This document shows, piece by piece, positions 3,983 through 26,930 of a DNA stretch of 32,000 bases. The stretch is from Alkanindiges sp. WGS2144. GTDB taxonomy: Bacteria; Pseudomonadota; Gammaproteobacteria; Pseudomonadales; Moraxellaceae. Position numbers and translations under genes: made by a program. Under the pieces are notes generated by a model that did not search any database, was not told where the DNA came from, and saw only the letters and a program-made list of their open reading frames with translations. The DNA is taken from the NCBI RefSeq assembly GCF_043950625.1, contig NZ_CP171007.1; one strand, 5' to 3'. Each line of letters begins with the position of its first letter. Position 1 is the first letter of the stretch.

Positions 3983-4114
3983 AGTAATTTTAAAGCAAAA
4001 ATATAAGTTACAACAAGCATTTATCATGGATTTTGGCATTTTACCCAATCAAAAAATAGCCAGTTGTAACTCATTGATTTCATTGAGCTGTTAAAGAGTG
4101 ATAAAAATATTGGG
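3983..4114 (-). promoter_or_regulatory. CRISPR leader (AT-rich, between the cas6f stop and the first repeat)
   Basis: A 132-bp AT-rich non-coding stretch directly abutting the terminal repeat at 3955-3982 on the cas-proximal side. I could not assign a convincing -35/-10 pair. Confidence 0.7.
4067..4079 (-). promoter_or_regulatory. Possible IHF site in the leader
   Basis: The minus strand reads AATCAATGAGTTA, which fits the IHF consensus WATCAANNNNTTR. It lies about 85-97 bp from the first repeat. This is a motif match only. Confidence 0.3.
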
Positions 4115-6869: not shown

Positions 6870-8210
6870 TTAGGCAAATTCCTCTTTAAGCAGTCGTAAT
6901 TTTTCTCGCAAGGCCAATGACCACACTCGTGCTTCAGCATCATCCAAGTCTTGTAACTTGCCTCGAGTAGTTAGAATCTTGTTCAGCCAAGTACCAAAGT
7001 TATAACCAACCTCAGTGTGCCAGTCACGTTCCCGATATGCTTCAAGCCACTCTTGCTCTTCTTTGGTTAGCTCACCCCGATCCTCCTTGATAAATAATTC
7101 TTCCCGATAGCCCCGATCTAGCCAAAAACTTTCCACGCGATTAAAATCTCGGCTTTTCTCCATTGTCCAGCCTGTAGTAGCACTTTGCTGAAGCTCAAGG
7201 CTCATATCAACAACGCAATCAGTGAGTTGCTCAACCAAATCGTCACGCTTTTTCCGAAACTCGCTATTATTTACACCATATTCATGACGATACATATGGA
7301 CAATAGCACCTAACAGTGGCTTCACATCTTTGCGATTACCAAGGTAACCCGTAAATACAGAACCCGACTTTGGTAGCTCTACAATCTGCCCCTGCCATAC
7401 GGGTGGCAGCGACGGCAATAACCACATAGCACCACGACGGTCACTATTAAGCTGCGAAATATTCTGCGGTTTTGATCCACCATAGTTGTGAATTAGCAAA
7501 CCAGGATACTCCCGACTTTCCTGCTCTCTGTGCAATTTTTTAAAACGTGCCTCGCGTAATACCTTGCTTTCTTCACTAAAACGATCGCTCAGGATATTTT
7601 GATAAGCACGATGCACCAGAGCACTCGGGTATAAAAGTACTAATACATGATAGCCGTCTTTTTCTACAGGAAAATAAACCTGCTTGGATAAGCGCCCAGC
7701 ATTCAATTGAGCAGGCGCTTTACTAAACGCCAAAAACCGCTGGTAACGGATGTGTGCTTGCTCAGATTGGTTTGCTAACGCAGCAATAAAATCAGCATCT
7801 GCTTTTAATAAGTGCTCAAGCAAGGAAACGTCGTTAAACTTTTGACGCAATAGTTTAAACACATCCAGAACCGCAGCATTACCAATCACGTCAGGTTCAA
7901 GGCTCAGGCCTTGCGAACCGATATAATCATGGGTCTTCTGTGCTTCAGAATAAAACATAGCAGATGCTTTAGAGTTTGGATGATGCTGCTTCGGTGTATG
8001 CGTTGCCAGTCGAATTTGACTGATACGCAGACTGGCCTCTTCCAGCCAGGTTTCAACATCATATTTTTCTAAAAGCTTTTCACGTTCTGCCGTATCCTCT
8101 GGCTTGAGCTTATCGAGTTTTTCGTTTAACCGACTCTGGATATATTGCTCAATCACTGCTCGAATAGTGGGCGGTGGAGAACCTGCTATCTCTTCTTTTG
8201 CATTTGACAT
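6870..8210 (-). CDS. cas8f: Cas8f/Csy1 large subunit (about 446 aa from the ATG at 8210; the ORF track extends to a TTG at 8222)
   Basis: Collinear with Pseudomonas Csy1 motifs (KLDKLxPED, GNAAxLDVFK, KQxYFP, GGxKPQNISQLN, WLLPSLPP). The true start is uncertain (8210 ATG or 8222 TTG). Confidence 0.92.
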   Translation of the reverse strand: MSNAKEEIAGSPPPTIRAVIEQYIQSRLNEKLDKLKPEDTAEREKLLEKYDVETWLEEASLRISQIRLATHTPKQHHPNSKASAMFYSEAQKTHDYIGSQGLSLEPDVIGNAAVLDVFKLLRQKFNDVSLLEHLLKADADFIAALANQSEQAHIRYQRFLAFSKAPAQLNAGRLSKQVYFPVEKDGYHVLVLLYPSALVHRAYQNILSDRFSEESKVLREARFKKLHREQESREYPGLLIHNYGGSKPQNISQLNSDRRGAMWLLPSLPPVWQGQIVELPKSGSVFTGYLGNRKDVKPLLGAIVHMYRHEYGVNNSEFRKKRDDLVEQLTDCVVDMSLELQQSATTGWTMEKSRDFNRVESFWLDRGYREELFIKEDRGELTKEEQEWLEAYRERDWHTEVGYNFGTWLNKILTTRGKLQDLDDAEARVWSLALREKLRLLKEEFA

Positions 8211-8267
8211 AGGATTTCTCAAAACTTGTTTTACAAAGTGAGTTATTTTTTAAAACAATTATTTGTT

Positions 8268-8588: not shown

Positions 8589-8625
8589 CTAGGCTTTATC
8601 AGGCTTAATCCCTGATAAAACCTAG
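8589..8625. other. 15-bp stem-loop (14/15 paired) straddling the cas2-3 stop codon
   Basis: CTAGGCTTTATCAGG (8589-8603) pairs with CCTGATAAAACCTAG (8611-8625). The 7-nt loop contains the cas2-3 stop (8605-8607). There is no U-tract on either strand. Confidence 0.4.
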
Positions 8626-11600
8626 CCAGTCATGGTATAACCATTTTTTGTTGTCCTGTAGCGTAGGCAAGTTCAGGCTTAAGTATCGACTACAATTATC
8701 CTGCCATTCATACTCTGATGAAGTTGTAACCAAATATTTGCTCAAAGCGTTTTCAGGCTTTTGGTTCGGCCAGCAGTGTATCTGCGGATTGACTTCAAGC
8801 TCTACTCTTCTCATTAGACTTTCTTTAAGCAGCCAATTACCTGTGTCCTGATTGTATTGCTGTAGTTGAAGTGATTGTTCTAGATGCTCTGCTCGTAATG
8901 CATGTAGGGATTCTGGCTGCGACTTTCTAAATTTACTCAAAGTTTGCAGAATACCTGTGTAATGAATGAGCGTGCTCCAGAAACTATAGGCAGGAAATTT
9001 TATGGGAGATAATTCACCAAATATTCTCATTTCTGGGCAGATTCCGTGCCCCAACAGTATGTGATGCATACGGTCATGCTCTAAATCCACCAGAGCTGGA
9101 TAACCAAATTTGTCATAATTTGCTTTCAAGTACATAGCTGGTGGCTGCTCTAACCTCGCAATTGCATCCAGCTGTTTAAAATGTGCCTTACGCAGTAAGC
9201 CATTGTCCACGCTATCATTGCGTGCTTTTAAAAAATGTCGATTGGGCAGAAACTTAAAACCCTCCGCTTCAAAACCAGGGCGCGAGAAACAGGCTTGTTG
9301 CGGATGCTTAAAGTGACGAATATTACTTTCCATTAAAAATACATTGGACTGTGCATAAGGCTCAGGTCGATGTCGTCGCGTACGCCCAGAAGTTTGTATG
9401 ATGGAACGCATGGATGAGGGCTCTAGAATCATCCAGTCATAGTCATGATCTCGTCCGACTTCGCATACTGGCGACGCCAAAACTAAAATAACGTGTTGTT
9501 GTTCTGGATATCGATTAAGCCAGCCTTGTACTAGTTGATGATCATGAGGCTGCTGTCCCTGATTACGGTCTAATAACTCATCCAGATATTTTTCAATATT
9601 TGCCCGAATTAATAGGGGAAACCGCGAATGATAAACACATAAATGAATACGAACATCTGGATCAATCTGCTGTTTTAATAATAGCTGTGCAATAGCAGCG
9701 AGTGGATCAATATTGGCAAAACGAACTAAACCAACGCTATATTGCTTGCCTGTTTTAGGATCCGTAATTGCATTTAAGTGATGGGCTTTTAGTGTTGTAG
9801 TGAGTATGTGCTGAGTAAAAATTTGCTCCCATTTCTCAGAAGAACTGATTTGCCTTGGCAATCCAACCCATTCTAGCGTGCGCCGATGAATTAAAGGGGC
9901 TTGTGCCTTTAAATAAGCCACACGATTTTTGGTAAATTTTCTATGGGCTTTTAAAAAAACAGGATTGGCTTCAGAGCTACTGATTGCGGTATTACAAGGG
10001 ATGACTTCATGACAAATACTTTTTTCATTTTCATCAAACCATGCGGCAATGATGGGCTGATTAGCCTGGGTGCGATGTGCATTATAAAATTTACGTCCTG
10101 AACTATAAGCCAGATATAAACCATTGATTTCAGCAGGTGTCAGGGTTGCAGAAGAAAGTAAAACCCGACTTCCCATTAAGCCTGCCCAATAAACCAGTCG
10201 CGCCAACGCATAATAATCTTCAGGTGAAAAATCATCGGGCTCATCAAAAACTAGATCCGAAGACATCAGGCGCAGCATGGGAGCAATCTGACGGCCACCA
10301 CGTGTACTCTCTGTGGCAGGAATCAGATGATCTATAGTGCAACATAAAATAGGGCTCATCAGCATTTTTTTGACTTGATGGTTACCCTTTAACCATTTGG
10401 CAAACAGATGATCAGCAGGTAGTATGCCTTCAAAGTCAATCTCAAGTTCGTCAAAATCAATATTAACTCCCTCTTCATAAAGTCCAGTCAAAGATTCTGA
10501 ACCCATGGTTTCAGCCAGTTCAGGATTAGTTTCGGGGTCAAAATTTTGCAGCTCTTCATCAATAATCTGGGCTGAAGTATTTTGACTGTACTGCTCAAAA
10601 ATTTCCTTAACTGCGCCACCACCTACCATAATGGCTAAATCAGTTTCATCCAGATTTAGGCGTTGACGTAAAGCCTTGCCTGTTTGCAAAGTTAAGGTGC
10701 GTAGGCCTAAAGCCACATTAAAACGTGCACCTTTCTCAGAGTCGGCCAGACCATACATGATGCGTGTATTCGCAAGCGTTTTACCTCGGCCTGTTGACGC
10801 TAAATTCACCCCGAAAAAGCCATGGTTTGGATAATTTTTCTGGATAAAGCGAGCTTCCTGATAAGATTTATCCTGCCACTTGTAATAGCTATTGTTGGTT
10901 TTACTTTCTAAACTTTTTTGTGGTGGTAAACGCTCAAATAGCTCATCCATGCGGGTAAAAGCGCCCATTAACTGCCGTACAGATTGACTTACGCCTATCA
11001 GATGATCATCTAAAGGCTGTTTTAGTTCACCCGTTTTATCTGTATTGGCATAACGCGTATAAGTCTTATCATGCCATTTTGGCGTTGGTTCACAGCTTGA
11101 ATAATAATGATCAGACAGCATTAAAGCCAAGCGGGAAATATGACTGATGTAAGGATCAGATAAATTTGGAGGGGAACCTGCTGGTATAAGCTGTTTGAGT
11201 TTTATCGCGCAACTATTTACCTCTTTACACCATGTTTTGCTATTAAAAGGGATATGTTTAGCTTCTATATTCCAGCACTGTTTGATTTCTTTTGCCCGAT
11301 TTTTATCATCTGCTTCGTAATGTCGTGGGTAACACCATTTGAAATTAAGCTCATCTAGCACAAAATCAAACTTTGCTAGAGAATAGTCCTTGTCTTGGCT
11401 TTTATCTTTACCCAGTAAATAGCTGGGTATAGGCAGTCGGTGATGAGAAACGATGAGCCACGCCACTATCTGAGCAATTTGCGGTAAGTCCTGAAATGGT
11501 GATAACAGGATAGCTTGATCAGGATGATCCTTAACCAGTGCCTCTAGCCAGACATAGTCTACGTTTTGAGGTGAAAGCGTGGTTAATTTTTCAATCCATG

Positions 11601-12117
11601 CCTTGTCATTTGTTCCGCACGCTTTAACGAATGCCTCAAATAAGCGTAGCGACACCCATTCATGCCGAAATGGATCAGCTATCGGTTTTTTATTAAATTT
11701 AGCATTGGCTAATTTTTTAGCAAAAAATGGATTAATTTTCCCAAAGTCATGAAATAAGGCCGCAATACGGCTCAGCGCTGTGATCAATGCTGCTGTTTGC
11801 CAATTGGTATCGCTATAGTCCAGTTTAATTGGCTTAACCGTTCTATTGACTGGCACATGGCCTTCGCTATTAAACTTACTACGCTGTCCCACAATCCACA
11901 TCAATTCACTGTGCCGCCGTGAACGTATCCAGTGGCAGGACACCGCCGTATTTTTACTGGCAGTTTTACGTAACAAGCGTTTCGCTGCCAGCAACCCATC
12001 CTCAGTAATCACCGTTTGCCAGGTATTATCCCCAATGCGGTTGGCAAAGGCATCCAACACACGGCGGGTACGCGGCAGGGCTTTTTTCTCGCATTGAGAA
12101 ATAAAGGTAACAATCAT
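8605..12117 (-). CDS. cas2-3: Cas2-Cas3 fusion (Cas2/3 nuclease-helicase, 1170 aa)
   Basis: N-terminal Cas2-like domain, an HD nuclease motif (LFHDFGK...SHH), a helicase Walker A (STGRGKT) and a DExD-like box (FDEPDDF). Its ATG overlaps the cas1 stop (ATGA). Confidence 0.97.
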   Translation of the reverse strand: MIVTFISQCEKKALPRTRRVLDAFANRIGDNTWQTVITEDGLLAAKRLLRKTASKNTAVSCHWIRSRRHSELMWIVGQRSKFNSEGHVPVNRTVKPIKLDYSDTNWQTAALITALSRIAALFHDFGKINPFFAKKLANAKFNKKPIADPFRHEWVSLRLFEAFVKACGTNDKAWIEKLTTLSPQNVDYVWLEALVKDHPDQAILLSPFQDLPQIAQIVAWLIVSHHRLPIPSYLLGKDKSQDKDYSLAKFDFVLDELNFKWCYPRHYEADDKNRAKEIKQCWNIEAKHIPFNSKTWCKEVNSCAIKLKQLIPAGSPPNLSDPYISHISRLALMLSDHYYSSCEPTPKWHDKTYTRYANTDKTGELKQPLDDHLIGVSQSVRQLMGAFTRMDELFERLPPQKSLESKTNNSYYKWQDKSYQEARFIQKNYPNHGFFGVNLASTGRGKTLANTRIMYGLADSEKGARFNVALGLRTLTLQTGKALRQRLNLDETDLAIMVGGGAVKEIFEQYSQNTSAQIIDEELQNFDPETNPELAETMGSESLTGLYEEGVNIDFDELEIDFEGILPADHLFAKWLKGNHQVKKMLMSPILCCTIDHLIPATESTRGGRQIAPMLRLMSSDLVFDEPDDFSPEDYYALARLVYWAGLMGSRVLLSSATLTPAEINGLYLAYSSGRKFYNAHRTQANQPIIAAWFDENEKSICHEVIPCNTAISSSEANPVFLKAHRKFTKNRVAYLKAQAPLIHRRTLEWVGLPRQISSSEKWEQIFTQHILTTTLKAHHLNAITDPKTGKQYSVGLVRFANIDPLAAIAQLLLKQQIDPDVRIHLCVYHSRFPLLIRANIEKYLDELLDRNQGQQPHDHQLVQGWLNRYPEQQHVILVLASPVCEVGRDHDYDWMILEPSSMRSIIQTSGRTRRHRPEPYAQSNVFLMESNIRHFKHPQQACFSRPGFEAEGFKFLPNRHFLKARNDSVDNGLLRKAHFKQLDAIARLEQPPAMYLKANYDKFGYPALVDLEHDRMHHILLGHGICPEMRIFGELSPIKFPAYSFWSTLIHYTGILQTLSKFRKSQPESLHALRAEHLEQSLQLQQYNQDTGNWLLKESLMRRVELEVNPQIHCWPNQKPENALSKYLVTTSSEYEWQDNCSRYLSLNLPTLQDNKKWLYHDWLGFIRD

Positions 12118-13076
12118 ACTTCTGCCCCCGGTTTAAAGGACAACGCCGCCGCCTTTACCTGATCAAACATCCAATCCAAACAGCGATGCTCAGTAAATTT
12201 CTGCAAAATCTGCTGGCGGAATTCCTGCTCGGTCGCTTTTTCCTTGGCGCAGACAAATGCCCAGGGCAGCACGATAGCATCCTTAATGAGATCAGCCACA
12301 TCAAATACCAACGCACCGCGGCGAGTTTTGCCATGCATCACAGCAAAACCATGTGGAATGCCTAAAACCCAAAGTGTGGTAGCAGCAAGTCCGTATGCCA
12401 GATAGTTGCCATGATTTAAAAAATCATTGGCTAGGTCGCCCTGCTCATGATTACGGTTAAAATCCGCTGCGCCACAACGCGTGGCAGCGGCTTTATACAG
12501 TTGTTTGGTGGTCATGGCTTCAGCCAGCAAAATATCGCCCACTTTATCCAAATAGCCTAGCTTCTTTTCAAAACCCGCTAAAGCCTGCTCAATATCGCGG
12601 TCATCAATATAAAAACCTTCAGCTTGCAGATCGCGGTCTTTTGCCCAGATCCTGCGGATAAACTCAATACGAGCCTGCTGGAATTGCTTGGCAACCGTTA
12701 AACGCTTGGTGTCATCAAACCAGAATTGCATCCAGCCTTGCATGTATTCAGTAGGCCGATATTCACTTTGCGGCGTCATCCATTCAATTTCACAGCCCAT
12801 AAATAGCGGTGTGCCACCTCCACCAGTAAAACCGACCAGTACCCCGGCACTAGCCAGCATCCGCATAGCGGCTTGAGTAATAGAGGTGCCCGTACCCAGC
12901 ATAATAACCGTGGTATTGGCAATCGGAATATTCCAGTACTGATTTTCATTTTTGGCTTCGGTTAGATAAAGCACGCGGCCATCTTTTTGCATCACCCGAC
13001 AATGCTCAAGATAATAAAGATTAGCCCGCTTGGAGTGCAAAATGGCTTTCAAATCCGACGGGTTGAGCTGTTCCAT
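12114..13076 (-). CDS. cas1: Cas1 integrase, type I-F (about 320 aa from MEQLNPSDLK; the ORF track extends to 13136)
   Basis: Near-collinear with Pseudomonas I-F Cas1 as remembered (SxLKxILHSKRANLYYLxHCRV, WNIPIANTT, GTGTSITQAAMR, HGKTRRGxLVFDVADLIKD). The start was chosen by that alignment; upstream ATGs at 13106 and 13136 are possible. Confidence 0.96.
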   Translation of the reverse strand: MEQLNPSDLKAILHSKRANLYYLEHCRVMQKDGRVLYLTEAKNENQYWNIPIANTTVIMLGTGTSITQAAMRMLASAGVLVGFTGGGGTPLFMGCEIEWMTPQSEYRPTEYMQGWMQFWFDDTKRLTVAKQFQQARIEFIRRIWAKDRDLQAEGFYIDDRDIEQALAGFEKKLGYLDKVGDILLAEAMTTKQLYKAAATRCGAADFNRNHEQGDLANDFLNHGNYLAYGLAATTLWVLGIPHGFAVMHGKTRRGALVFDVADLIKDAIVLPWAFVCAKEKATEQEFRQQILQKFTEHRCLDWMFDQVKAAALSFKPGAEV

Positions 13077-13144
13077 AGTGTTTAAACCAATCCATGTTTT
13101 CTTCATTATTACTTTATTTTTATAAAAAACCATCACTTACTTTT

Positions 13145-13194: not shown

Positions 13195-14443
13195 ATTTTG
13201 AACAACAAGTGTTTTAAGCCTTTTTACGCTTCATCCACAAATAACCGATCAGCAAAATCAACAGCCAAATCGGACTTACAATCAATGACTGTCGGGTGTC
13301 TTCTTCCAGTGCCAAAATACCCACGGTAAAAATAAAAAAGGCAATGACGATGTAGCTCATCAACACTCCGCCCGGCATTTTATAAATCGACTGCGCATGC
13401 AGCTCAGGCCGGGTTTTGCGGTACTTAATATAAGCAACCATCACCACCACCCATACACTAATAAACAAAATGGTCGATAGCGTGGTTGCCAGGGTAAATG
13501 CACGCAAGGTATTGGGCACAAAGTACTGGAGCAGGGCTCCACCCATAATAAACGCACACGATACCACCAGCGCGTTAGAAGGTACTGCCGCCTTTGACAA
13601 CCTACCAAACATGCTGGAGGCCTGATTATCCTTGGCCAAACCAAACAGCATACGACTGGTAGAAAACACCCCACTATTCATGGATGACATGACTGAAGAC
13701 AACACCACCAGGTTCATAATAATGGCAGCGGTTGGAATACCTGCCATCAAGAACAGCTCTACAAATGGGCTTTTGTCCGCCACCACTTGCCGCCATGGGG
13801 TGACCGACATCACTACCATAAGTGCCAGCACATAAAACAGAATAATCCGGAGCGGAATGGAGTTCACGGCCTTGGGCAAATTGCGCATGGGGTCTTTGGT
13901 TTCTGCGGCTGTAGTACCCACCAGCTCAACCCCCACAAAGGCGAAAATGGCAATCTGAAAACCAGCCAGAAAGCCGTGACTTCCATTGGGAAACATGCCG
14001 CCATCATTCCATAAATTGGCAAGCGATGCGGTACTACCACCAGGCGATTGAAAACCAGTGACCACCATGTATGCGCCAATCACCACCAGTGCAATAATAG
14101 CAATAATCTTGATCAGGGCAAACCAGAACTCTACCTCGCCAAACAGGCGCACGGTGAGCAGGTTTAATCCCAGCAAAAACAGCACACAGCCTGCACTAAT
14201 CGCCGCACCGCCCAGCGGGGTAAACTGCTGACCTTGCGGCAGCCAGAAGGTTAAATAACTATTAATAGCCGCAAGATCGGCAATACCAACCGTGATCCAG
14301 CATAACCAATACGTCCAGCCCATAAAAAAGCCGACTTTTGGCCCTAGCAAATCATGGGTTAAATCAATAAAGGATTTATATTGCAAATTGGATAACAATA
14401 ATTCGCCCAGCGCCCGCATGACGAAAAAAATCATTAAGCCAAT

Positions 14444-15326
14444 AGACCTCTTGCGAAAGTCGTTATTGCAAGTTCATCCGGTTTACCAGTGCAGCGATTA
14501 AGTTAATGCGTAAACCGAATCTTTTCCGTCGATTTCGATAGCGTTCACTTAGTATTCTAAATCTTTTCAATTGACTGTTAATATGTTCGATTACAACTCG
14601 TATTTTTCCAATCATTTTATTGTACTTTTTCTCAACATCAAATAAGGGTAAATTCTTCTTTTTCTTTATTGGCATCAATAATTTAAAGCCATCTTGCTCT
14701 AACCCATAGTACCCTAAATCGGTCATAACATATTCAAAATGTTTGAATTTTTTTACTGTTTTTCTTGCCAATTTAATATCATGCTGACTGCCAGACGATA
14801 TATCTACTCCTATGATTTGTTTGCTCTTCGGATGATAGATCACTTGGGCTTTTAGCGTATGTTTCTTCTTTTTACCACTGTAGAACTTACTCTGATTTTT
14901 TTTTCGGGCGTTCTATTGAACATTCTGTAGCATCAATAATGACCCAGTTAAATTGTTCGTTTGCTGTGGTAATGCTTCGTTTTGGCAAGGTAAAACGTCT
15001 TGATTTCATTAATGCATCTTCAACCTTTTTAATAGTTCGATTCACATTACTTTCAGCGATATGGTAATTTGCAGCCAATTCCAATTGAGTGCTGTAATTC
15101 CGTAAGTAATTGAGTGTTAATAATAATTGATCCTCTATAACTAAAGTATGAGGACGCCCAGATTTCTTTTTAAGTGATTCTGCTTCTTTTAAAACTTCGA
15201 CCATTTCACTAAAAACTGGTCGAGGTACACCAACCAAGCGCTTGAATTCAGAATCTGAAAAACGGTTTAATTTCTGATATTTCATGAAATCTATATTGAG
15301 GCAGTTTTTACTTTCGCAAGAGGTCT
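14444..15326 (-). mobile_element. IS5-family (DDE_Tnp_4 / PIF-Harbinger-like) insertion sequence, 883 bp
   Basis: Perfect 17-bp terminal inverted repeats, AGACCTCTTGCGAAAGT at 14444-14460 and its reverse complement at 15310-15326. A 3-bp target duplication AAT lies at 14441-14443 and 15327-15329. Confidence 0.9.
14463..15285 (-). CDS. IS transposase in two frames (orfA 14887-15285, orfB 14463-14843) joined by a +1 shift at an A9 run
   Basis: orfA carries an HTH and the first catalytic D (IIDATECSIERPKKK). The +1 frame continues QSKFYSGKKKKHTLKAQVIYH... with MTDLGY and IEHINSQLKRF motifs. The A9 run on the minus strand is at 14896-14904. Confidence 0.85.
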
Positions 15327-15804
15327 AATAATCATATAAATAAACAAAATAGAAGGTCCAGCTAGACTAATCGTCTTGCCAGAACCCATAAACAGGCCAG
15401 TACCAATCGCGCCACCAATGGCAATTAACTGTAAATGTCGGTTGGATAATTTACGCTGCAAATGGTCTGGCGATGACTGAGTATTGGCATCATCAAAGGA
15501 GGTCATAAAAAGTAGTTCCCAGGTTTGTTATGCCCCGCTTATAAGCAATAATTTATTCCACAAGCACCAGTATTTATTGGAGGATTAACCCTAAAAATGC
15601 TGGCACTATGTGTGGCATCCCTGATTGGTATGGGGCAAATTTAAGCCTGCTCATTTAACAATGAACTACCGGGTAGACACAACAATTTCCTGTGGTATAA
15701 ACACAATTTTGTACGACATGCCATGACGCTATACGATCATGGTTTTAGGATTTTACAGCTAAAACCCGCTACACTATTGTCCATTTAGTAAAACAACGGA
15801 TGCC

Positions 15805-17259
15805 ATGAGCAAGGTCAAAACTCAATATCTCTGCCAGCAGTGTGGCACCAGTCACCCCAAATGGTCAGGTCAGTGCAGTGATTGCGGTGAATGGAACTGC
15901 CTGATTGAAAGCAAACCCGAAGCTGTATCCACGCACCGTGCCAAAGCCGGCATTGTGGCGGGTGGTTACGCCGGACAGGCCAGCAGTGTGACCAAGTTGA
16001 ATCAGGTCAGCTTAAGCAAAGAAACCCGGTTAAGTACGGGTATTAGCGAGTTTGACCGGGTACTGGGTGGTGGTTTGGTGGCTGGTTCAGTGGTACTCAT
16101 TGGCGGCGACCCCGGCATTGGAAAATCCACCATTTTGCTGCAAACCATGACGCATATGGCGGAACAGAAACACCCGGATCATAAGCGGGTGTATGCCAAG
16201 CAAACCATGACGCATATGGCGGAACAGGCTGGCGAAGGCAATCGTGCCTTATATGTCACCGGTGAAGAATCCTTATCGCAGGTGGCACTGCGGGCACAAC
16301 GGCTGGATTTGCCCACGCATCAACTCAGCGTGATGGCTGAAACCTGCGTAGAAACCATTTGCGCCACCCTGGCTCAGGAAAAACCCGCAGTTGCGGTGCT
16401 GGATTCGATCCAGACCTTATATACTGAAAGCCTGCAATCAGCACCCGGTGGCGTGGCGCAAATCCGTGAATCAGCCGCCCTGCTCACCCGTTTTGCCAAA
16501 AATTCCAGCACTGCGTTGTTTCTGGTCGGTCATGTCACCAAAGAAGGTGCGTTGGCTGGCCCTCGTGTGCTGGAACATATGGTGGACTGCGTGCTGTATT
16601 TTGAAGGTGAATCCGACTCGCGTTTTCGAATGATTCGAGCAGTGAAAAATCGTTTTGGGGCGGTCAATGAGCTGGGCGTATTTGCCATGACCGATCGCGG
16701 CCTGCGTGAAGTACCTAACCCGTCAGCCATTTTTTTAAGTCGCTATGATGAAGCCATTCCCGGCAGTATTGTCATGGTCAGCCGTGAAGGGACGCGTCCC
16801 CTATTGGTTGAAGTACAAGCCCTGGTGGATGATGCGCATGGGCAGCCGCGCCGTGTCGCTCTGGGTCTGGATCAAAACCGCCTTGCTATGCTGCTGGCTG
16901 TGATGCACCGGCATGGTGGGGTTCATACTACTGGACAGGATGTGTTTGTTAACGTGGTAGGTGGAGTGAAAGTACTGGAAACTGGCTCTGACCTTGCCGT
17001 GTTACTGGCCGTTGCTTCCAGTTTGCGTGGCAAAGCCTTACCCCGGCACTTGGCAGTGTTTGGTGAAGTTGGTTTATCTGGCGAAATCCGCCCAGTACCC
17101 AATGGACAGGAGCGCCTGCGCGAAGCAGTCAAACATGGTTTTAAAACCGCCATTGTACCGCGTGCCAATATGCCTCAGCAGCCGATTAAAGGTTTAAATG
17201 TGATTGCGGTGGGGCGCTTACATGAAGCACTTGAGGCAGCGCTGAACACAGCAGATTAA
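15805..17259 (+). CDS. radA: DNA repair protein RadA/Sms (484 aa) carrying a 20-codon in-frame insertion
   Basis: N-terminal zinc ribbon (CxxC...CxxC), Walker A GDPGIGKST, the KNRFG motif and a Lon-like C-terminal domain. Confidence 0.95.
   Translation: MSKVKTQYLCQQCGTSHPKWSGQCSDCGEWNCLIESKPEAVSTHRAKAGIVAGGYAGQASSVTKLNQVSLSKETRLSTGISEFDRVLGGGLVAGSVVLIGGDPGIGKSTILLQTMTHMAEQKHPDHKRVYAKQTMTHMAEQAGEGNRALYVTGEESLSQVALRAQRLDLPTHQLSVMAETCVETICATLAQEKPAVAVLDSIQTLYTESLQSAPGGVAQIRESAALLTRFAKNSSTALFLVGHVTKEGALAGPRVLEHMVDCVLYFEGESDSRFRMIRAVKNRFGAVNELGVFAMTDRGLREVPNPSAIFLSRYDEAIPGSIVMVSREGTRPLLVEVQALVDDAHGQPRRVALGLDQNRLAMLLAVMHRHGGVHTTGQDVFVNVVGGVKVLETGSDLAVLLAVASSLRGKALPRHLAVFGEVGLSGEIRPVPNGQERLREAVKHGFKTAIVPRANMPQQPIKGLNVIAVGRLHEALEAALNTAD
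16140..16227. repeat. 28-bp perfect direct repeat flanking a 32-bp insert (CRISPR-unit geometry) inside radA
   Basis: GCAAACCATGACGCATATGGCGGAACAG occurs at 16140-16167 and again at 16200-16227. The flanking bases differ on both sides, so the repeat is exactly 28 bp. The intervening 16168-16199 is 32 bp of unrelated sequence. Confidence 0.9.
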
Positions 17260-17439
17260 GCCCTTAGACAAAAAGTTGACTGAAGGTTTGATTGACAGTT
17301 TTTGTGCTGCATTTGTTAGTTTTTAAGGCTGGCTTAATGGTGATCAACAACAATTTAAAACACAATGTCTGCTTGAATTTCCCCGGCAGAACTACATTAA
17401 TGATCTAACCGTTTATAGATTAAAAACAGGTAATTGCAG

Positions 17440-18441
17440 ATGCAAATGAAAACTCGTGGTTTACTGACTGCGTTAATGATGACTACACTGGTCATTTCAC
17501 CATTGGCCGAAGCCAAGCGTATGGGCGGTGGCAAAAGCTATGGCATGAGCCGCAGCAGTAATTCTTCGCCTAGCCGTAACTACAACCGTCCGGCCACCCC
17601 ACCGCCAAACCAGCAACCAGCAACTGCACCACAACGCTCAGGCCCGGGTGTAGGGGGCATGGTGGCAGCAGGTGCGGCGGGTGCTGCTGCTGGTTATATG
17701 CTCGGTCATAGTAACGAAGCACGCGCCCAGCAAGACCCAACGGCCACAAACGATCCAACTATAGCCACCGAACAGGGTACTGCTGCCAGTGCACAGCAGG
17801 AGCAAAAAAGTAATTTTGGCTGGCTGTGGATTTTGGCTTTAGCTGCGGCTGCGTTTTTCATTTTCCGTCGTTTCAGCGCCAAAAAAGCAACTGCCAACGG
17901 TAATCCGTTCGCGCCGAGCAGTGGCGCAAACCGTCAGTCATTAAGTTCCTCTGGCCCATTTGCACGTAACAATATGCCCGCTGCATCACACCCTGGAACT
18001 AGCGACAACACCAATATCTTTGGTCAGACTGTAGGGGCTAGCAGTGCAGTGGGTGGTGCGTATAGCAGTAGCGGTAATGCCCTACCTGATGGCACTGAGC
18101 CTGCGGCCTTTTTACGTCAGGCGCGTGCCAAGTTTTTACACTTACAGTCTATGAACAGCAGCAGCAATATTGAAGAAGTGCGTCGCTACTTTACAGCAGA
18201 TATGTACACGGCTATCCGCGAGGAAATCTTGTCCAATGATGATCTGGCAGAGTTTCCGCAGCTTAATGCCCAGGTAGTTGATAGTGGTAACGAAAATGGT
18301 CAATACTTTGCCAGTGTAGAATTTAGTGGTACAGTCAGTGAGTCAGTAAATGCACAAGCTGTGCCATTTAGCGAAATCTGGCACTTTGTAAAACCACAAA
18401 ATGGTAGTGAGTGGCTGGTTGCTGGCATTCAGCAACAGTAA
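17440..18441 (+). CDS. Secreted or membrane protein with a C-terminal Tim44-like domain
   Basis: Signal peptide, a low-complexity G/A/P/Q-rich region, a TM segment (WLWILALAAAAFFIF), and a C-terminal region resembling bacterial Tim44-like domain proteins. The start is uncertain (17434 TTG, 17440 ATG or 17446 ATG). Confidence 0.6.
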   Translation: MQMKTRGLLTALMMTTLVISPLAEAKRMGGGKSYGMSRSSNSSPSRNYNRPATPPPNQQPATAPQRSGPGVGGMVAAGAAGAAAGYMLGHSNEARAQQDPTATNDPTIATEQGTAASAQQEQKSNFGWLWILALAAAAFFIFRRFSAKKATANGNPFAPSSGANRQSLSSSGPFARNNMPAASHPGTSDNTNIFGQTVGASSAVGGAYSSSGNALPDGTEPAAFLRQARAKFLHLQSMNSSSNIEEVRRYFTADMYTAIREEILSNDDLAEFPQLNAQVVDSGNENGQYFASVEFSGTVSESVNAQAVPFSEIWHFVKPQNGSEWLVAGIQQQ

Positions 18442-18480
18442 CGATACAACGCTTTGTGTTTGTTGTGTCCTGCATAAAAG

Positions 18481-18503
18481 ACCTCCTCCATGGAGGTTTT
18501 TTA
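18481..18503 (+). terminator. Rho-independent terminator
   Basis: ACCTCC-TCCAT-GGAGGT followed by a T-run. Confidence 0.7.
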
Positions 18504-18563
18504 TTGCTTGCTAATTGCCCTACCCAAACCTTATCTTAAACAGCTATACACTTTTAATTATTC

Positions 18564-18600
18564 AAAAATAAAAAAGCTCCTGCAAACAACATCAGGAGCT
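18564..18600 (-). terminator. Rho-independent terminator of purA
   Basis: On the minus strand: AGCTCCTG, a 10-nt loop, CAGGAGCT, followed by TTTTTTATTTTT. Confidence 0.7.
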
Positions 18601-18620
18601 TTCTGGGCGTTACCCGTTAC

Positions 18621-19958
<1,338 letters not shown>

Positions 19959-19999
19959 TCAAACCATTGAGCTGGCAATAAACATGCCAGCCTGAAAAT

Positions 20000-21163
20000 T
20001 TATATTACCTGACGTTGCCATTGCTGATCCTGCTGGATCAATTGGTGGGTCACTCCTGCCTGCCGGTCTTGTTCATCCAGCATTTGAATCACCACAAAAC
20101 CATCCTGACGTGCCTGTTCAATAGCCGCCTGTAAGCCTTGCTCCTGTCCTGCCGGTGCCAGCATGACAGGCCTAACCTGTAACTGCTGCCCCTGTACCAG
20201 TGCATACAGATCGCAGCTAAATCCGGTCGCTGGACGCTCACGACCAAACGCTACACCAATGCCATCGTAACGTCCACCCTGCGCCAATGGCACGGCACGG
20301 TTAGCGCCATAAGCGGCAAATGTCAAACCCGTATGATAGTTATAGCCACGCAACTCGGCAGCATCCACCCCAACATTAAGCGCCGGCCAGTATTGTTGTA
20401 CATGTGCCTGAGCCTGCTCCAGTGCAGCCAGCGCCTGTTGCAGTGTATCATTGGCCAGTGCTTGTACAGATAACTGTTGTTTGAGTGCGGTTAAATCATG
20501 ACCATAGCGGCCCAGTACATAAAAATCCTGACCAGATGGCAGCGTCGCTGTATATTCAGACAGCTCAGGAATGGCTTTACGCTGATACAAGTCCGTCAGT
20601 TTGGCTTCCTGGTTTTCTGTTAGACCGGCGCTACGGGCAAGATTCCTGAAAATAGCCACGTGACCCAGATCCAGATGCAACTGCTGTTCAAACCCGGCTT
20701 GCTTTAGTACAGTCAGCATTAAATCCAGCATTTCAAGATCAGCAGCCAACCCTTCAAAACCATACAACTCGGCACCGAGTTGCAAAGGCGCACGCGAGGC
20801 AGATAATCCCTGGGGTTTGGTATGTAAAACTGTTGCGGCATAGCAATATCGTGCAATGCCTTCAACTGGCCGCACATGCGCATCTATTCGTGCCACTTGC
20901 GGGGTCATATCCGCCCGCACACCAAGCAAACGCCCGGATAGCTGATCAATGAGCTTAAAGGTAGCCAGGTCAAGATCGGCAGTCGTACGATTTAATAAGG
21001 AAAGAGATTCGACATATTCAATAAGTGGCGTGTATACCAGCTCATAGCCATGGCTGGCGAGTAAGTCCAGTAAACGACGACGAAGCTGTTCAATCACTTG
21101 CGCCTGCTCTGGCAGCACATCAGCCACCCCATCAGGCAGTAACCAAGTTTCGACAACGGACAT
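20000..21163 (-). CDS. hisZ: ATP phosphoribosyltransferase regulatory subunit HisZ (387 aa)
   Basis: HisRS-like catalytic core without an anticodon-binding domain, N-terminus WLLPDGVADVLP. It lies immediately upstream of purA, which is the typical hisZ-purA arrangement. Confidence 0.85.
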   Translation of the reverse strand: MSVVETWLLPDGVADVLPEQAQVIEQLRRRLLDLLASHGYELVYTPLIEYVESLSLLNRTTADLDLATFKLIDQLSGRLLGVRADMTPQVARIDAHVRPVEGIARYCYAATVLHTKPQGLSASRAPLQLGAELYGFEGLAADLEMLDLMLTVLKQAGFEQQLHLDLGHVAIFRNLARSAGLTENQEAKLTDLYQRKAIPELSEYTATLPSGQDFYVLGRYGHDLTALKQQLSVQALANDTLQQALAALEQAQAHVQQYWPALNVGVDAAELRGYNYHTGLTFAAYGANRAVPLAQGGRYDGIGVAFGRERPATGFSCDLYALVQGQQLQVRPVMLAPAGQEQGLQAAIEQARQDGFVVIQMLDEQDRQAGVTHQLIQQDQQWQRQVI

Positions 21164-21324
21164 GCTAAAACCTATTTATTTTTGGTAGAAAGCTAAAAAA
21201 GCCACTAGCCACACGAAAAAAAATCGGGCTACTCCCCGACGCTGGCAAGTCTAGCATGAAGCATAAACTGTTGCACGCTTCAAGCTAGCTAATTCATGAG
21301 AAAAACCAGCATTGTGAACTGGCA

Positions 21325-22383
21325 TTAAAACTTAACCGGCACCACACTCAGCGCCTTGCACAAATCCAGCATACGGTTGGCATAACCCCATTCATTATCA
21401 TACCAGGCCAGCACTTTAGCCTGCTTGCCGACCACCATGGTTTGCAAACTATCCACTACCAATGAATACGGCTGGTGGTTAAAATCACTGGATACCAGCG
21501 GCTGATCTGTCACATCCATAATATGGAAGTACTGATTTTGCGCAGCATCTATAAATAACTGATTAATCGTCTGTACATCAGCTGGTCTTTGCATCACAAA
21601 CGACAAATCAATCGCCGCAACATTAATGGTTGGTACCCGTATGGAGTAGCCATCAATACGATTTTCCATATGCGGCAGTACCCGCTTTAAGGCGCCTAAC
21701 GCACTGGAAGTGGTAGGAATAATATTATAGCCCGAGGCTCTGGCACGACGTGGATCACGGTGTGCCTGATCCAGCACGGCCTGATCGGTAGTGACTGCAT
21801 GAATTTCGGTCATCAAGGCGGTTTCAATACCAAAGGCATCATCCAGCAGCTTAACCAGCGGTACCAGTGCTTGCGTAGTACAGGATACACTGGAAATCAC
21901 CCGGTCGGTGGCGCTTATTTCATGCTCATTCACGCCAAATACTACGGCGGCGTCAACTGTATCAAAGGGTGCTGCACCAATAATCACTCGTCCCGCACCT
22001 GCCTGCAAATGCCGCGATGCCCCTTCACGTGAGCGGAACAAACCCGTACACTCCAGTACCACATCAATATCCAGCGCCTGCCAGGGCAGTTGTTCAGGCT
22101 GGGTTTGCTGCAACAGGCGGATTTTTTTAATATTATTGGTGTGCTCAATATGCAAAAAGGTTTGACCAGATTCTTTTTGTACTTCTACTTTGGCATTAAA
22201 ACGGCCATGCGTGCTGTCAAAACGCAACAGGTGAGCCAGCATCTCTGCTTCAGCAATATCATTGATTGCAGCAATGTTTACCTGTGGCCACAGGTTTTCT
22301 TCTATCCATGCCCGCAGCACATTACGGCCAATTCTTCCAAAACCATTAATGGCAATATTTAAGCAAGTAGAAGGTGGGCTCAC
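21325..22383 (-). CDS. epd: GAPDH-family dehydrogenase, probably erythrose-4-phosphate dehydrogenase (352 aa)
   Basis: NGFGRIGRN, SCTT and WYDNEWGYANR motifs. The DFNH motif and the position next to tkt favour Epd over glycolytic GapA. The subfamily assignment is tentative. Confidence 0.7.
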   Translation of the reverse strand: MSPPSTCLNIAINGFGRIGRNVLRAWIEENLWPQVNIAAINDIAEAEMLAHLLRFDSTHGRFNAKVEVQKESGQTFLHIEHTNNIKKIRLLQQTQPEQLPWQALDIDVVLECTGLFRSREGASRHLQAGAGRVIIGAAPFDTVDAAVVFGVNEHEISATDRVISSVSCTTQALVPLVKLLDDAFGIETALMTEIHAVTTDQAVLDQAHRDPRRARASGYNIIPTTSSALGALKRVLPHMENRIDGYSIRVPTINVAAIDLSFVMQRPADVQTINQLFIDAAQNQYFHIMDVTDQPLVSSDFNHQPYSLVVDSLQTMVVGKQAKVLAWYDNEWGYANRMLDLCKALSVVPVKF

Positions 22384-22622
22384 AGCACAGGCTCAGCAAT
22401 AAAAGCAGCTTAGTGTAACGTATCAACTGATGAATAAAAATAATAAACTTTTTTCGGGGTAAAAGTCCTGTATTTTTTCTACAGCGTTATTTTTTGGGCA
22501 ATGCCTGTGCTTAATTGATCCATTCACCTTTTCACAAATTCCTTCAATAACTGGCACCATTATTGCTTAATGCATTAACAGCGTCTAATAGTTTTGTTAT
22601 TTCATGAACAGAGTCACATAAT

Positions 22623-23291
22623 ATGGACATTATCCCAACTTCCTTTAAGGTACTGGTGCTCAGTTTTGCCATTCTAGGATCAAATTCGTCACTAGCAGAA
22701 ACGATTTATACCTGGGAGGACGAACGAGAAGCCCTAACCAATTATGGTGATATTCCACCAGATGATGAATTAGGTGCTGATGCAGTGAAAATTGTTAACC
22801 TCCAGCAAGGCTTAACCACTAAGGTTGATTTTCCTACCCGTGCCGTGGATGAGGCGATAGAAAAATCGCGTCAACTCAGCTTAATAAGTCCATCTGCTGG
22901 ACCAGCAAGCCAGAATCCGTCTGCCACAAACGCTCCCAAAATGATTGGTTCTTCAGCACCTGCATCAACAGGCGCAACTTTGCCACCCCAGCCTCTAGCT
23001 AATGACCAGCCTCGCATGCTTGGTTCTGGTAGTAGCAACACTGCTAATGACTCTGCGGAAGCACAAAAGCTGAATGAACAGGAAGCCAAGCTGGAAGCAC
23101 AGGCTCAAAGCGCCCGCCGTATTGCAATGGACAAGCGCAAGGAAGAAATGCGGGCACTGGCTGAACGTGTGCGTAATGGCGCTGCATCCAGACAAGAAAT
23201 TGCTGCATTGATGACGTACCGCCAGACCGCCTCCTTTGGTGAAGCACGCGGTGCACTGGCTCGCCCCAAAGTATCGACCAAGTCGCAGTGA
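22623..23291 (+). CDS. Secreted DUF4124-like protein (222 aa)
   Basis: Signal peptide, an IYTWEDE..NYGDIPP motif typical of DUF4124, and a low-complexity, coiled C-terminal half. Confidence 0.55.
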   Translation: MDIIPTSFKVLVLSFAILGSNSSLAETIYTWEDEREALTNYGDIPPDDELGADAVKIVNLQQGLTTKVDFPTRAVDEAIEKSRQLSLISPSAGPASQNPSATNAPKMIGSSAPASTGATLPPQPLANDQPRMLGSGSSNTANDSAEAQKLNEQEAKLEAQAQSARRIAMDKRKEEMRALAERVRNGAASRQEIAALMTYRQTASFGEARGALARPKVSTKSQ

Positions 23292-23383
23292 AATAACGCA
23301 TTAAAGCAAAAAAGCCCCCTAAAACAGGAGGCTTCCCAGGCTATTTTTTAACAGATCGCTTTATTTAACCCAAACTGTTAGCG

Positions 23384-23411
23384 CAATTGTCCTGTTAAAA
23401 CAGGACAATTG
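23384..23411. other. Perfect 12-bp stem-loop between the convergent DUF4124 gene and tkt (possible bidirectional terminator; no U-tract)
   Basis: CAATTGTCCTGT-TAAA-ACAGGACAATTG. Confidence 0.35.
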
Positions 23412-23421
23412 TCTGACAATG

Positions 23422-25410
23422 CTAGGTAGTCACTTCCTGTACCGCTGCCACTACCGCCTCAACAGTAATACCAAAATGCTTAAATAAGTCTTTGGCAGGT
23501 GCAGACTCACCATAAGTTGTCATACCAATCACCTTGCCATCCAGACCCACAAATTTCCACCAGTAATCTACATGGGCAGCCTCTACCGCCACACGGGCAC
23601 GAATACAGGCTGGCAATACAGACTCGCGATAGTTTGCGTCCTGACGCATAAATTCTTCAGCACATGGCATGGATACCACCCGTACACCATCCAGTTGCCC
23701 ATACGCTTGCATAGCTAGATCTACTTCTGAGCCAGTGGCAATAATAATGGCCTTGAGTTCACCTTTTTCTGGTGCCAGCACATAGCCGCCTTTAGCAGCG
23801 TTATTAAGCTGCTCTTCAGTACGGGTTTCATGTGGTAAATTCTGACGTGAAAAAATCAGTGCCGTTGGCCCATCTTTACGCTCAAGGGCTGATTTCCAGG
23901 CAATCGCTGCTTCCACTGCATCGGCTGGACGCCAGGTATTGAGGTTAGGCGTATTACGTAAAGAAGCAATTTGCTCAATAGGTTGGTGGGTTGGGCCATC
24001 TTCCCCTAAACCAATGGAGTCATGGGTATAAACATGAATCACCCGCTGCTTCATCAGGGCTGACATACGCACTGCATTACGGGCATACTCCATAAACATC
24101 AGGAAAGTGGCTACATACGGAATAAAACCACCATGCAAGGCAATGCCGTTGGCAATGGCAGTCATACCAAACTCACGTACGCCATAATAAATATAATTAC
24201 CAGTTGGGTTATCCTGAATTCCCTCACAACCTTTCCATAAAGTCAGGTTGGAACCAGCTAAGTCAGCTGAACCGCCCAGCAATTCAGGCAACAGCGGGCC
24301 AAAGGCTTCCAGGGTATTCTGGCTGGCTTTGCGGCTGGCAATGGTCTCACCTTTTTCATTGACGTCACGAATAAACTGCTCAGCCCGGGCAGCAAAATCG
24401 GCTGGCAAATCACCACTTAAACGACGCTGTAATTCGCTGGCCAGTTCTGGATACTGCGCTTTATAAGTATCAAACAGTTTATTCCACTCAGCTTCCTGTG
24501 CTTCCCCTTTTTGTCTGCCGTCCCATGCAGCATACACATCAGCTGGAATAACAAATGGCTCATCCGTCCAGGTCAGGGTATCGCGCATCAGCTCAATTTC
24601 TGGCAGGCCCAGCGGTGCGCCGTGACAAGACTCTTTACCCTGTTTGTTGGGCGAACCTAAACCAATCACAGTTTTACAAACGATCAGACTTGGTTTGGAG
24701 GTCTGGGACTGAGCTTCAAGTGTCGCCTGATGAATGGCTTCGGTGTCATGACCATCCACCTTAATCACATGCCAGCCATAGGCTTCAAAACGTGCTTGCG
24801 TATCGTCGCTAAACCAGCCTTCTACACTGCCATCAATGGAAATGCCGTTGTCATCATAATAAACAATCAATTTACCTAATTGCAGCGTACCAGCCAGAGA
24901 GCACACCTCGTGTGAAATACCCTCCATTAAGCAGCCATCACCCACAAAACAGTAAGTAAAATGATCCACTACATTCAGGTCACCACGGTTAAACTGGGCA
25001 GCCAGGGTTTTTTCGCTAATGGCAAAACCTACTGCATTAGCAATACCCTGCCCTAGCGGGCCAGTCGTGGTCTCTACCCCGGCGGTATAACCATACTCCG
25101 GGTGTCCAGGCGTTTTACTGTGCAGTTGGCGAAACTGTTTTAAGTCATCAATGGATAAATCATAGCCAGTCAGATGCAGTAAGGCATATTGCAGCATGGA
25201 ACCATGCCCATTGGACAACACAAAGCGATCACGGTTTGGCCAGCTAGGGTTGCTGGGGTTATGACGTAAAATTTGCCGCCACAACACTTCAGCAATTTCT
25301 GCCATACCCATCGGGGCTCCCGGATGACCAGAATTTGCCTGTTGAACCGCATCAACTGCCAGCACACGTATTGCATTGGCAAGGCGACGTTCATTAAGTG
25401 GTGTTGTCAT
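23422..25410 (-). CDS. tkt: Transketolase (662 aa)
   Basis: SGHPG, the [10 protein letters not shown] ThDP motif and [15 protein letters not shown]. Confidence 0.97.
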
Positions 25411-25669
25411 GAGCCAGTTTCCAGAAAATAAAAATAAACCTGAATAAAAAAAGGCCAGATACTGACCAAAAAGCTGTGCCTATTGTCCTAAAAATAACGC
25501 AGGGGGTAAAGTAAAAATCTGCCTTTTAATACCGTGGTTCATCGACTCTCCATATAACCATAAAAATTATTGTGATCCGATCAGGCATTTTTCATCAAAG
25601 AGCGCTAGTCCAAAACAGTAAGTCGCGCTAACATAGCCCCCATCTTTATTTTTGATTTCTGGAACATTC

Positions 25670-26836
25670 ATGCGCGAATACGCTGTCTTTACGTCAGAAT
25701 CGGTCAGTGAAGGCCACCCAGATAAAATGGCCGACCAAATCAGTGATGCCATCCTTGATGCAATTTTACAACAAGACTTATATGCCCGTGTGGCCTGCGA
25801 AACGCTGGTAAAAACCGGCGCCGTGGTACTGGCTGGAGAAATTACTACCACTGCTAACGTGGATTTTGAAAGAATTGTGCGTGATACCGTCAATGGGATT
25901 GGTTATCATCATTCTGATTTAGGTTTTGACGGTTCAACTTGCGCGGTGATTAATATGCTAGGCAAGCAATCACCTGAAATTGCCCAGGGTGTTGACCGCC
26001 AAAAACCCGAAGATCAGGGTGCAGGTGATCAGGGGCTGATGTTCGGCTATGCCAGCTCTGAAACTGACGTATTAATGCCTGCCCCCATTTGCTACGCGCA
26101 CCGCCTGGTTGAAAAACAATCTGAGCTACGCCGTAGCGGACATCTATCCTGGTTGCGCCCGGATGCCAAAAGCCAGGTGACCTTTCATTATGAAAATGGC
26201 AAACCTGCCCGCGTCGATGCTATTGTACTGTCGACCCAGCATGACCCTTCCATTAGTCAAGAAGAGCTCAAAGAAGCAGTGATTGAAGAAATTGTTAAGG
26301 CAGTCATTCCGGCTAACATGCTACATGCAGCCACCAAGTTTCATATTAACCCTACGGGTAAGTTTGTGATTGGTGGCCCGGTGGGTGATTGTGGTTTAAC
26401 TGGCCGCAAAATTATTGTCGATACTTATGGTGGTATGGCGCGTCACGGCGGTGGGGCGTTTTCCGGTAAAGACCCTTCCAAGGTAGACCGCTCAGCAGCC
26501 TACGCTGGTCGTTACGTGGCCAAGAACATTGTGGCAGCGGGTCTTGCCGAGAAGTGCGAGATTCAGGTGAGCTATGCCATCGGTGTTGCAGAACCCACCT
26601 CTATTTCTATTAATACCTTTGGTACCGGCAAAATCAGTGATGAGCAAATTATTGCCTTGATCCGCGAACACTTTGACCTGCGTCCTTATGGCATTACCCG
26701 TATGCTGAACCTGTTGCAACCGATGTATCAAAAAACCGCTAGCTTTGGTCACTTTGGCCGTCAGGGTTCTGACAATGCCTTTACCTGGGAAAAAACCGAC
26801 AAGGCAGACCAGTTAAGGCAGGCAGCTGGAGTTTAG
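25670..26836 (+). CDS. metK: S-adenosylmethionine synthetase (about 388 aa from [19 protein letters not shown])
   Basis: [19 protein letters not shown] and [16 protein letters not shown] motifs. The start at 25670 is preferred over the TTG at 25652 by alignment with E. coli MetK. Confidence 0.96.
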
Positions 26837-26878
26837 GCCGCGTTTTTTCAGCCAGAAGCTACTGGCTGCAATCTAACT

Positions 26879-26912
26879 ACCGTTCTATGCCCTATCGCAT
26901 AAGCGGTTTTTT
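26879..26912 (+). terminator. Probable metK terminator
   Basis: An imperfect hairpin (ACCG..TATGC / GCATA..CGGT) followed by T6. Confidence 0.45.
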
Positions 26913-26930
26913 AATGTCCAGTATTTTTAC

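Follow-up and report, generated by a model that had tools for sequence, protein, structure and literature searches.

A 28–32–28 bp insertion in radA of Alkanindiges sp. WGS2144 as a candidate natural off-target spacer integration by a type I-F CRISPR system

Introduction

Integration of new spacers outside CRISPR arrays has been described in Escherichia coli, where hundreds of chromosomal off-target sites of the type I-E system are attributed by citing papers to Nivala, Shipman & Church (Nat Microbiol 2018). The same citing papers mention circumstantial natural cases in two other species, and one of them links off-target efficiency in E. coli to motifs resembling the binding site of integration host factor (IHF). 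So far the phenomenon is known mainly from over-expression in E. coli, and natural examples are few and circumstantial. The two species concerned are reportedly Yersinia pestis (type I-F) and Sulfolobus islandicus. Here, a 60 bp insertion is described in radA, the gene for the DNA repair protein RadA/Sms, of Alkanindiges sp. WGS2144, a member of the Moraxellaceae. It was found in a stretch of 32 000 nucleotides (the window) that also carries a type I-F CRISPR–Cas system. A 28 bp segment of radA is present twice, on either side of 32 bp of unrelated DNA, and the structure was probably produced by leader-independent, ectopic spacer integration by the resident Cas1–Cas2/3. We class it as a new natural case of off-target spacer integration, a phenomenon already known, and regard it as a very well supported candidate rather than a proven case.

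The locus resembles the E. coli type I-E neo-CRISPRs in its spacer-length insert outside the array, its repeat-length duplication, the presence of a cognate integrase in the genome and a target that is only loosely similar to the repeat. It differs from them in being natural, without over-expression of Cas1–Cas2, in involving type I-F and a Moraxellaceae strain, in having no in-register IHF-like motif and in lying in frame within a conserved housekeeping open reading frame (ORF), which still encodes an intact, longer protein. Full-site integration at non-CRISPR DNA has also been obtained in vitro with Pyrococcus furiosus Cas1–Cas2, the points of attack being separated by one repeat length and the DNA between them sharing with the repeat no more than scattered bases at conserved positions (PMC6698737). 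The radA target is loosely comparable, with 9–10 of its 28 bases shared in register with the repeat and a small palindrome centred at the same place. The P. furiosus events, unlike the fixed chromosomal allele in radA, took place in vitro on plasmids and involved a different subtype and organism.

Canonical type I-F acquisition by Pseudomonas aeruginosa Cas1–2/3 and IHF likewise yields a 28 bp duplication and a 32 bp spacer, and an enzyme of this family is encoded 3 kb from the radA insertion. A target duplicated around an insert by staggered cuts and gap repair is also the mark of transposons, from which the radA structure differs in that the insert is only 32 bp long and has neither a transposase nor terminal inverted repeats, and in that the duplication is 28 bp. 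Target duplications are typically 2–15 bp for insertion sequence (IS) elements and roughly 14–15 bp for casposons, and Cas1 is itself a domesticated integrase of the casposase type. We know of no enzyme other than the type I-F Cas1–Cas2/3 integrase that makes a 28 bp target duplication around a 32 bp insert.

Geometry of the insertion

The duplicated segment, GCAAACCATGACGCATATGGCGGAACAG, is present in two copies that are 100% identical (Table 1). Copy 1 is preceded by T and followed by A, copy 2 preceded by A and followed by G; this mismatch on either flank fixes the duplicated unit at exactly 28 bp and the intervening DNA at exactly 32 bp. The latter, AAACACCCGGATCATAAGCGGGTGTATGCCAA, starts with AAACACCCGG and ends with GTATGCCAA, and is unrelated to the surrounding sequence. 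In the resident array, 66 of 66 repeats are 28 bp long, and the spacers are 32 nt in 61 of 65 cases and 33 nt in the remaining four; the match to the radA insertion in repeat length and modal spacer length is therefore exact. A sequence-only reading of the window had already pointed out the two copies, their mismatched flanks and the agreement with the array, all of which were reproduced. Its description of the array as adjacent was not: the insertion lies ~12 kb from the leader end of the array and ~3 kb from the start codon of cas1.

Outside the array, which leaves 28 kb of the window, the radA structure is the sole exact direct repeat of at least 18 bp with its copies within 160 bp, and a search of this part for further 28–32–28 structures, which the sequence-only reading had proposed for the whole genome, returned no second one. 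Comparable repeats in 561 kb of relatives' loci were plain tandem repeats only. The pair of 28-mers is not a chance repeat. A simple tandem duplication, already rejected in the earlier reading, was ruled out as well, as the 32 bp between the copies have no counterpart in the ancestral sequence represented by A. illinoisensis. For contrast, the background scan for direct repeats recorded a true tandem duplication of ~82 bp upstream of radA in a Legionella metagenome-assembled genome (MAG; locus L069, 2593–2755), which is unrelated to the present structure.

Comparison with related radA genes

The closest sequenced relative of the strain is A. illinoisensis DSM 15370. Its radA contains a single 28-mer (26 of 28 bases identical) and aligns with a clean 60 bp gap at the position of one copy plus the 32-mer. 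Scanning of 185 579 species-representative genomes recovered 80 radA loci from Moraxellaceae and other gammaproteobacteria, none of which encodes the 20 additional residues. These residues were likewise absent from all 25 close RadA proteins inspected in a search of 5.8 billion sequences, a collection in which the RadA allele of the window forms a singleton cluster. The absence of the 60 bp from relatives had been anticipated in the sequence-only reading, and the alignments show that the insertion is derived and strain-specific. The radA DNA is only ~74% identical to that of A. illinoisensis, yet the two 28-mers agree at 28 of 28 positions, from which a recent event follows.

The same comparison bears on whether the segment might be an old native length variant of a RadA loop, or the result of recombination with a divergent radA allele. 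The loop that follows MTHMAEQ does vary in length among the relatives, but no variant contains a duplicated helix segment or KHPDHKRVYAK, and an exact 28/28 duplication against a DNA background of 74% identity speaks for a recent local event; we regard this explanation as essentially refuted.

An error of assembly or sequencing, or a chimeric molecule, the living strain having a normal radA, was considered very unlikely. From 15303 to 27259, the window is matched at 100% identity by an independent Logan assembly of SRR30887707 (the Logan contig ends at 15303 because an IS5-family element lies there), which shows that more than one assembler yields the structure. There is one sequencing project for the strain, and the NCBI and Logan assemblies may share reads. 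Collapse or expansion of repeats, however, cannot create a 28 bp repeat with a unique 32 bp centre, and the 32-mer, a unique sequence, reads through in frame with no stop codon.

The resident type I-F system

The coordinates of the relevant features are collected in Table 1. The leader contains a perfect IHF consensus, AATCAATGAGTTA, at 4067–4079 on the minus strand, 85–97 bp upstream of the first repeat, which fits an IHF-dependent type I-F leader architecture. We take a Glu, a His and two Asp residues to be the catalytic residues of Cas1. All four are conserved in the alignment of the Cas1 of the window, over its full length, with P. aeruginosa Cas1 (3GOD). The adaptation module is complete and apparently catalytically intact.

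Table 1
Features of the window

Feature	Coordinates	Strand	Remarks
Type I-F CRISPR array	1–3982	-	66 identical 28 bp repeats, GTTCACTGCCATGTAGGCAGCTTAGAAA; runs off the start of the window
CRISPR leader	3983–4114	-	72% A+T; ends ...AAAATTACT/GTTCAC (slash, leader–repeat junction)
cas6f/csy4	4115–4705	-	Above curated NCBIfam cut-off
csy3	4705–5748	-	Above curated NCBIfam cut-off
csy2	5751–6869	-	Above curated NCBIfam cut-off
csy1	6870–8222	-	Above curated NCBIfam cut-off
cas2/3 fusion (type I-F Cas3f)	8605–12117	-	Partner of Cas1 in the integrase complex; TIGR02562, 964 bits (cut-off 566), full length
cas1 (type I-F Cas1f)	12114–13136	-	Integrase subunit presumed responsible; TIGR03637, 471 bits (cut-off 150)
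radA (DNA repair protein RadA/Sms)	15805–17259	+	Host gene of the insertion; 484 codons
28 bp target, copy 1	16140–16167		Third base of the RadA Leu112 codon through the Gln121 codon
Spacer-like 32 bp insert	16168–16199		Encodes KHPDHKRVYA and two bases of a Lys codon; absent in all relatives
28 bp target, copy 2	16200–16227		Codes for (K)QTMTHMAEQ a second time; agrees with copy 1 at every base

The array itself carries traces of its history. Two adjacent spacers (1522–1553 and 1582–1613) are identical, which indicates duplication of a repeat–spacer unit. The newest and the eleventh spacer (3923–3954 and 3323–3354) have 23 nt in common with an offset of 9 nt, so that one target had been sampled twice, a pattern typical of primed adaptation. 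Overlapping and duplicated spacers together suggest an array that has been actively extended, by active or primed adaptation. When the resident spacers were compared with the window, no match exceeded 22 of 32 positions and none overlapped the insert.

Between cas1 and radA, an IS5-family element (14443–15327) has perfect 18 bp terminal inverted repeats, TAGACCTCTTGCGAAAGT, and a transposase split into two ORFs (14463–14843 and 14887–15285). The element has broken into the 5' part of a cycA-like gene for a D-serine/D-alanine/glycine permease (13214–14434), which is short of ~65 N-terminal residues.

Target site and source of the insert

The leader of the window has the canonical type I-F features, being A+T-rich, with a perfect IHF site and a repeat that starts with 5'-GT. 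Integration by the P. aeruginosa type I-F system in vitro depends on the 5'-GT and on a leader that is folded and carries two IHF sites together with two inverted repeats (Santiago-Frangos et al. 2023, bioRxiv 10.1101/2023.05.26.542337). The radA site differs from a canonical site in having no leader, no IHF site in phase and no 5'-GT, each of which is required for efficient integration in vitro.

Several observations weigh against integration as the origin of the radA structure, and most concern this site. The target begins with 5'-GC on the plus strand and 5'-CT on the minus strand, and its flanks contain 44–49% A+T compared with 72% in the leader. Nearby there is a single IHF-like site, which carries one mismatch and lies out of register by 15 bp. 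With P. aeruginosa Cas1–2/3, a scrambled leader gave zero integration in vitro, and mutation of GT to AA abolished integration (bioRxiv 10.1101/2023.05.26.542337). Those similarities to the repeat that the target does possess were noted post hoc, and each is weak on its own (p about 0.02–0.06). Furthermore, this is a single event in one genome, and there is no conspecific strain that shows the allele before insertion. No protospacer and no protospacer-adjacent motif (PAM), expected to be CC, were found in the collections searched; a foreign origin of the 32-mer is accordingly presumptive, as is the orientation of the event. Finally, the insert contains a hairpin (16170–16192, ACACCCG-N9-CGGGTGT) with a perfect 7 bp stem (-11.8 kcal/mol, z = -2.7); this is unusual, a stem of such length being present in only one of 60 genuine array spacers.

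The similarities in question are as follows. On the plus strand, the junction reads CT/G, compared with ACT/GT at the leader–repeat junction, and the 28-mer contains a CCAT/ATGG inverted repeat at positions 6–9/17–20, centred on position 13 (the repeat stem occupies 6–10/16–20; background 5.5%). On the minus strand, a GCCAT run at positions 8–12 agrees in register with the repeat, and the leader-proximal half is identical at 8 of 14 positions (background 2–4%). Identity to the leader in register is at chance level except for 5/10 at the plus-strand junction. As the features of a canonical site are missing, the event cannot have been a canonical one and is accounted for only as a rare, leader-independent, off-target reaction. 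The chromosomal off-target integrations documented in E. coli make rare leader-independent events in vivo plausible.

A source for the 32-mer was sought in the window and in sequence collections. In the window no other copy was found with up to three mismatches, and the longest partial exact match was 10 nt, which is chance level; the insert is therefore not native sequence copied from elsewhere in radA, a possibility that the sequence-only reading had named as damaging to its proposal. That reading had also called for a comparison with mobile elements, which was carried out and gave no source. The INPHARED phages and PLSDB plasmids were searched with blastn, IMG/VR with the exact 32-mer and with three overlapping 20-mers as well as three wobble-degenerate patterns, and the JGI metagenomes with the central 22-mer and one wobble-degenerate pattern, all without a hit that could be taken as the source. 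Rhodococcus phage Francesca gave a match of 21 nt (E = 0.02) that lies across the 5' edge of a tRNA-Leu gene and was put down to chance. The 23-mer common to two resident spacers, used in the hope of reaching an element that carries the 32-mer, also had no match in IMG/VR. As a control, the whole array was compared with the phages and plasmids: of the 65 genuine spacers, no more than one gave a (weak) phage match, and the plasmid matches were other type I-F arrays. Since genuine spacers are also almost all unmatched, the negative result for the 32-mer is uninformative; the mobilome of WGS2144 is not represented in the databases searched. The positional composition of the spacers did not discriminate between the two orientations of the insert because both of its ends are A/T.

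Some of these observations would suit an origin independent of Cas proteins, in which template switching during replication or repair (of the fork stalling and template switching, FoSTeS, or microhomology-mediated break-induced replication, MMBIR, type) or filler-DNA repair copied ~32 nt from elsewhere and re-annealed 28 nt upstream, the type I-F geometry being coincidental. The site without the 5'-GT, leader and IHF features needed in vitro, the failure to find a protospacer or PAM and the strong hairpin can all be read in this way, secondary structure often being linked with template switching. Such an origin nevertheless seems improbable to us. Both 28 and 32 would have to match the resident system by chance, the window contains no donor for the 32-mer, no microhomology can be seen between the end of the insert (..GCCAA) and the sequence before the 28-mer (..TTGCT), and the relatives' loci contain no comparable structure.

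The inverted repeat within the 32-mer also recalls joined IS ends, and the strain has active IS elements, the IS5-family copy ~0.8 kb away being absent from A. illinoisensis. The structure could then be the footprint of an IS or a miniature inverted-repeat transposable element (MITE) that made a 28 bp target duplication and was excised almost precisely, leaving 32 bp of its ends. This is very doubtful, as a 28 bp duplication is far beyond the range typical of IS families and two independent coincidences of length would be needed. Moreover, the inverted repeat of the insert is internal and asymmetric rather than terminal (its arms stop 2 nt short of one end and 7 nt short of the other), and the 32-mer is unlike the neighbouring IS5-family element and its ends. 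Ectopic integration by the type I-F system, for which the sequence-only reading had put the locus forward, gains support from relatives without the insert, from the intact adaptation module and from a 32-mer that is not a local copy.

Effect of the insertion on RadA

The 60 bp add 20 in-frame codons without a stop, as had been claimed from the sequence. They encode KHPDHKRVYAKQTMTHMAEQ, in the context ...GKSTILLQTMTHMAEQ-KHPDHKRVYAKQTMTHMAEQ-AGEGNRALYVTGEES. One repeat–spacer unit of a type I-F system measures 60 bp, which is divisible by three, so that inserting such a unit never shifts the reading frame. As oriented here, the spacer is open in the frame used; inverted, it would read TGA.

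The helix after the P-loop lies on one side of the insertion and the ALYVTGEES strand on the other, and the alignment with Streptococcus pneumoniae RadA (5LKM) breaks exactly at residues 121–145. An AlphaFold2 (AF2) model, mediocre overall (mean predicted local distance difference test score, pLDDT, 63.5) and reasonable in the ATPase core, has the native helix at 107–120 formed from the first copy, a low-confidence loop at residues 123–144 (pLDDT below 50) and the strand kept at 148–152. Across the Moraxellaceae, the loop at RadA 120–147 (window ~16160–16245) is hypervariable in length and sequence, for example AGSATENTTRALY, HVGDATSHATSNANRALY and AKTAQLSPVNKVNDNACAALY; after MTHMAEQ it is 12 residues longer in an Acinetobacter MAG and nine residues longer in P0003. 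The alignments point to this loop as a natural hotspot that tolerates insertions and deletions. An insertion in a loop of variable length could leave the allele viable, and these observations make it plausible that RadA tolerates the surface-loop insertion; the protein would presumably still work.

The radA structure does not resemble a working array. RNA of the canonical repeat forms a 5 bp stem at positions 6–20 (-7.8 kcal/mol), whereas the pairings in RNA of the radA 28-mer are weak and of another kind (-3.1 and -3.4 kcal/mol), not exceeding those of shuffled sequences in stability and lacking the CUGCC/GGCAG stem. The structure has a single spacer and no leader-like flank, lies inside an ORF, and showed no sign at the radA site of CRISPR RNA production or further expansion. 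Because the 28-mer lacks the Cas6f hairpin, the locus, probably an integration scar, is not a functional neo-CRISPR or mini-CRISPR.

Discussion

The structure in radA would be explained as follows. Cas1–Cas2/3 loaded with a 32 bp prespacer would have attacked chromosomal radA instead of the leader-proximal repeat. Its two active sites would have carried out staggered strand transfers on opposite strands, 28 bp apart, a distance set by the fixed ruler of the integrase. Gap filling would then have copied the 28 bp target on either side of the spacer, giving the 28–32–28 structure. RadA would have gained 20 residues in a loop, with the frame kept and the allele surviving. The radA case is a clean one in that an outgroup provides the ancestral state, the lengths agree exactly, the integrase genes are 3 kb distant and the gene hit is a conserved one.

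A more far-reaching interpretation is possible, and we put it forward tentatively: that type I-F Cas1–Cas2/3 integrates in vivo without a leader, IHF positioning or 5'-GT, that the 60 bp unit is a natural generator of in-frame insertions and that the radA allele encodes a functional protein with a CRISPR-derived loop of 20 residues. If an off-target origin of the radA structure holds, a type I-F integrase can act in nature at a site without the leader, IHF and 5'-GT elements that are essential in vitro, and adaptation would carry a real genomic cost in the form of self-mutagenesis. The frame-keeping 60 bp unit would allow some of these events to persist as protein insertions.

The ancestral radA 28-mer offers a concrete substrate for biochemical work on off-target specificity, and a simple genome-wide search for scars consisting of a spacer between target-site duplications is suggested as a means of estimating how frequent such events are. 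Should the more far-reaching interpretation hold, CRISPR integrases would occasionally feed the evolution of host proteins, and their scars could be mined across genomes for natural off-target preferences.

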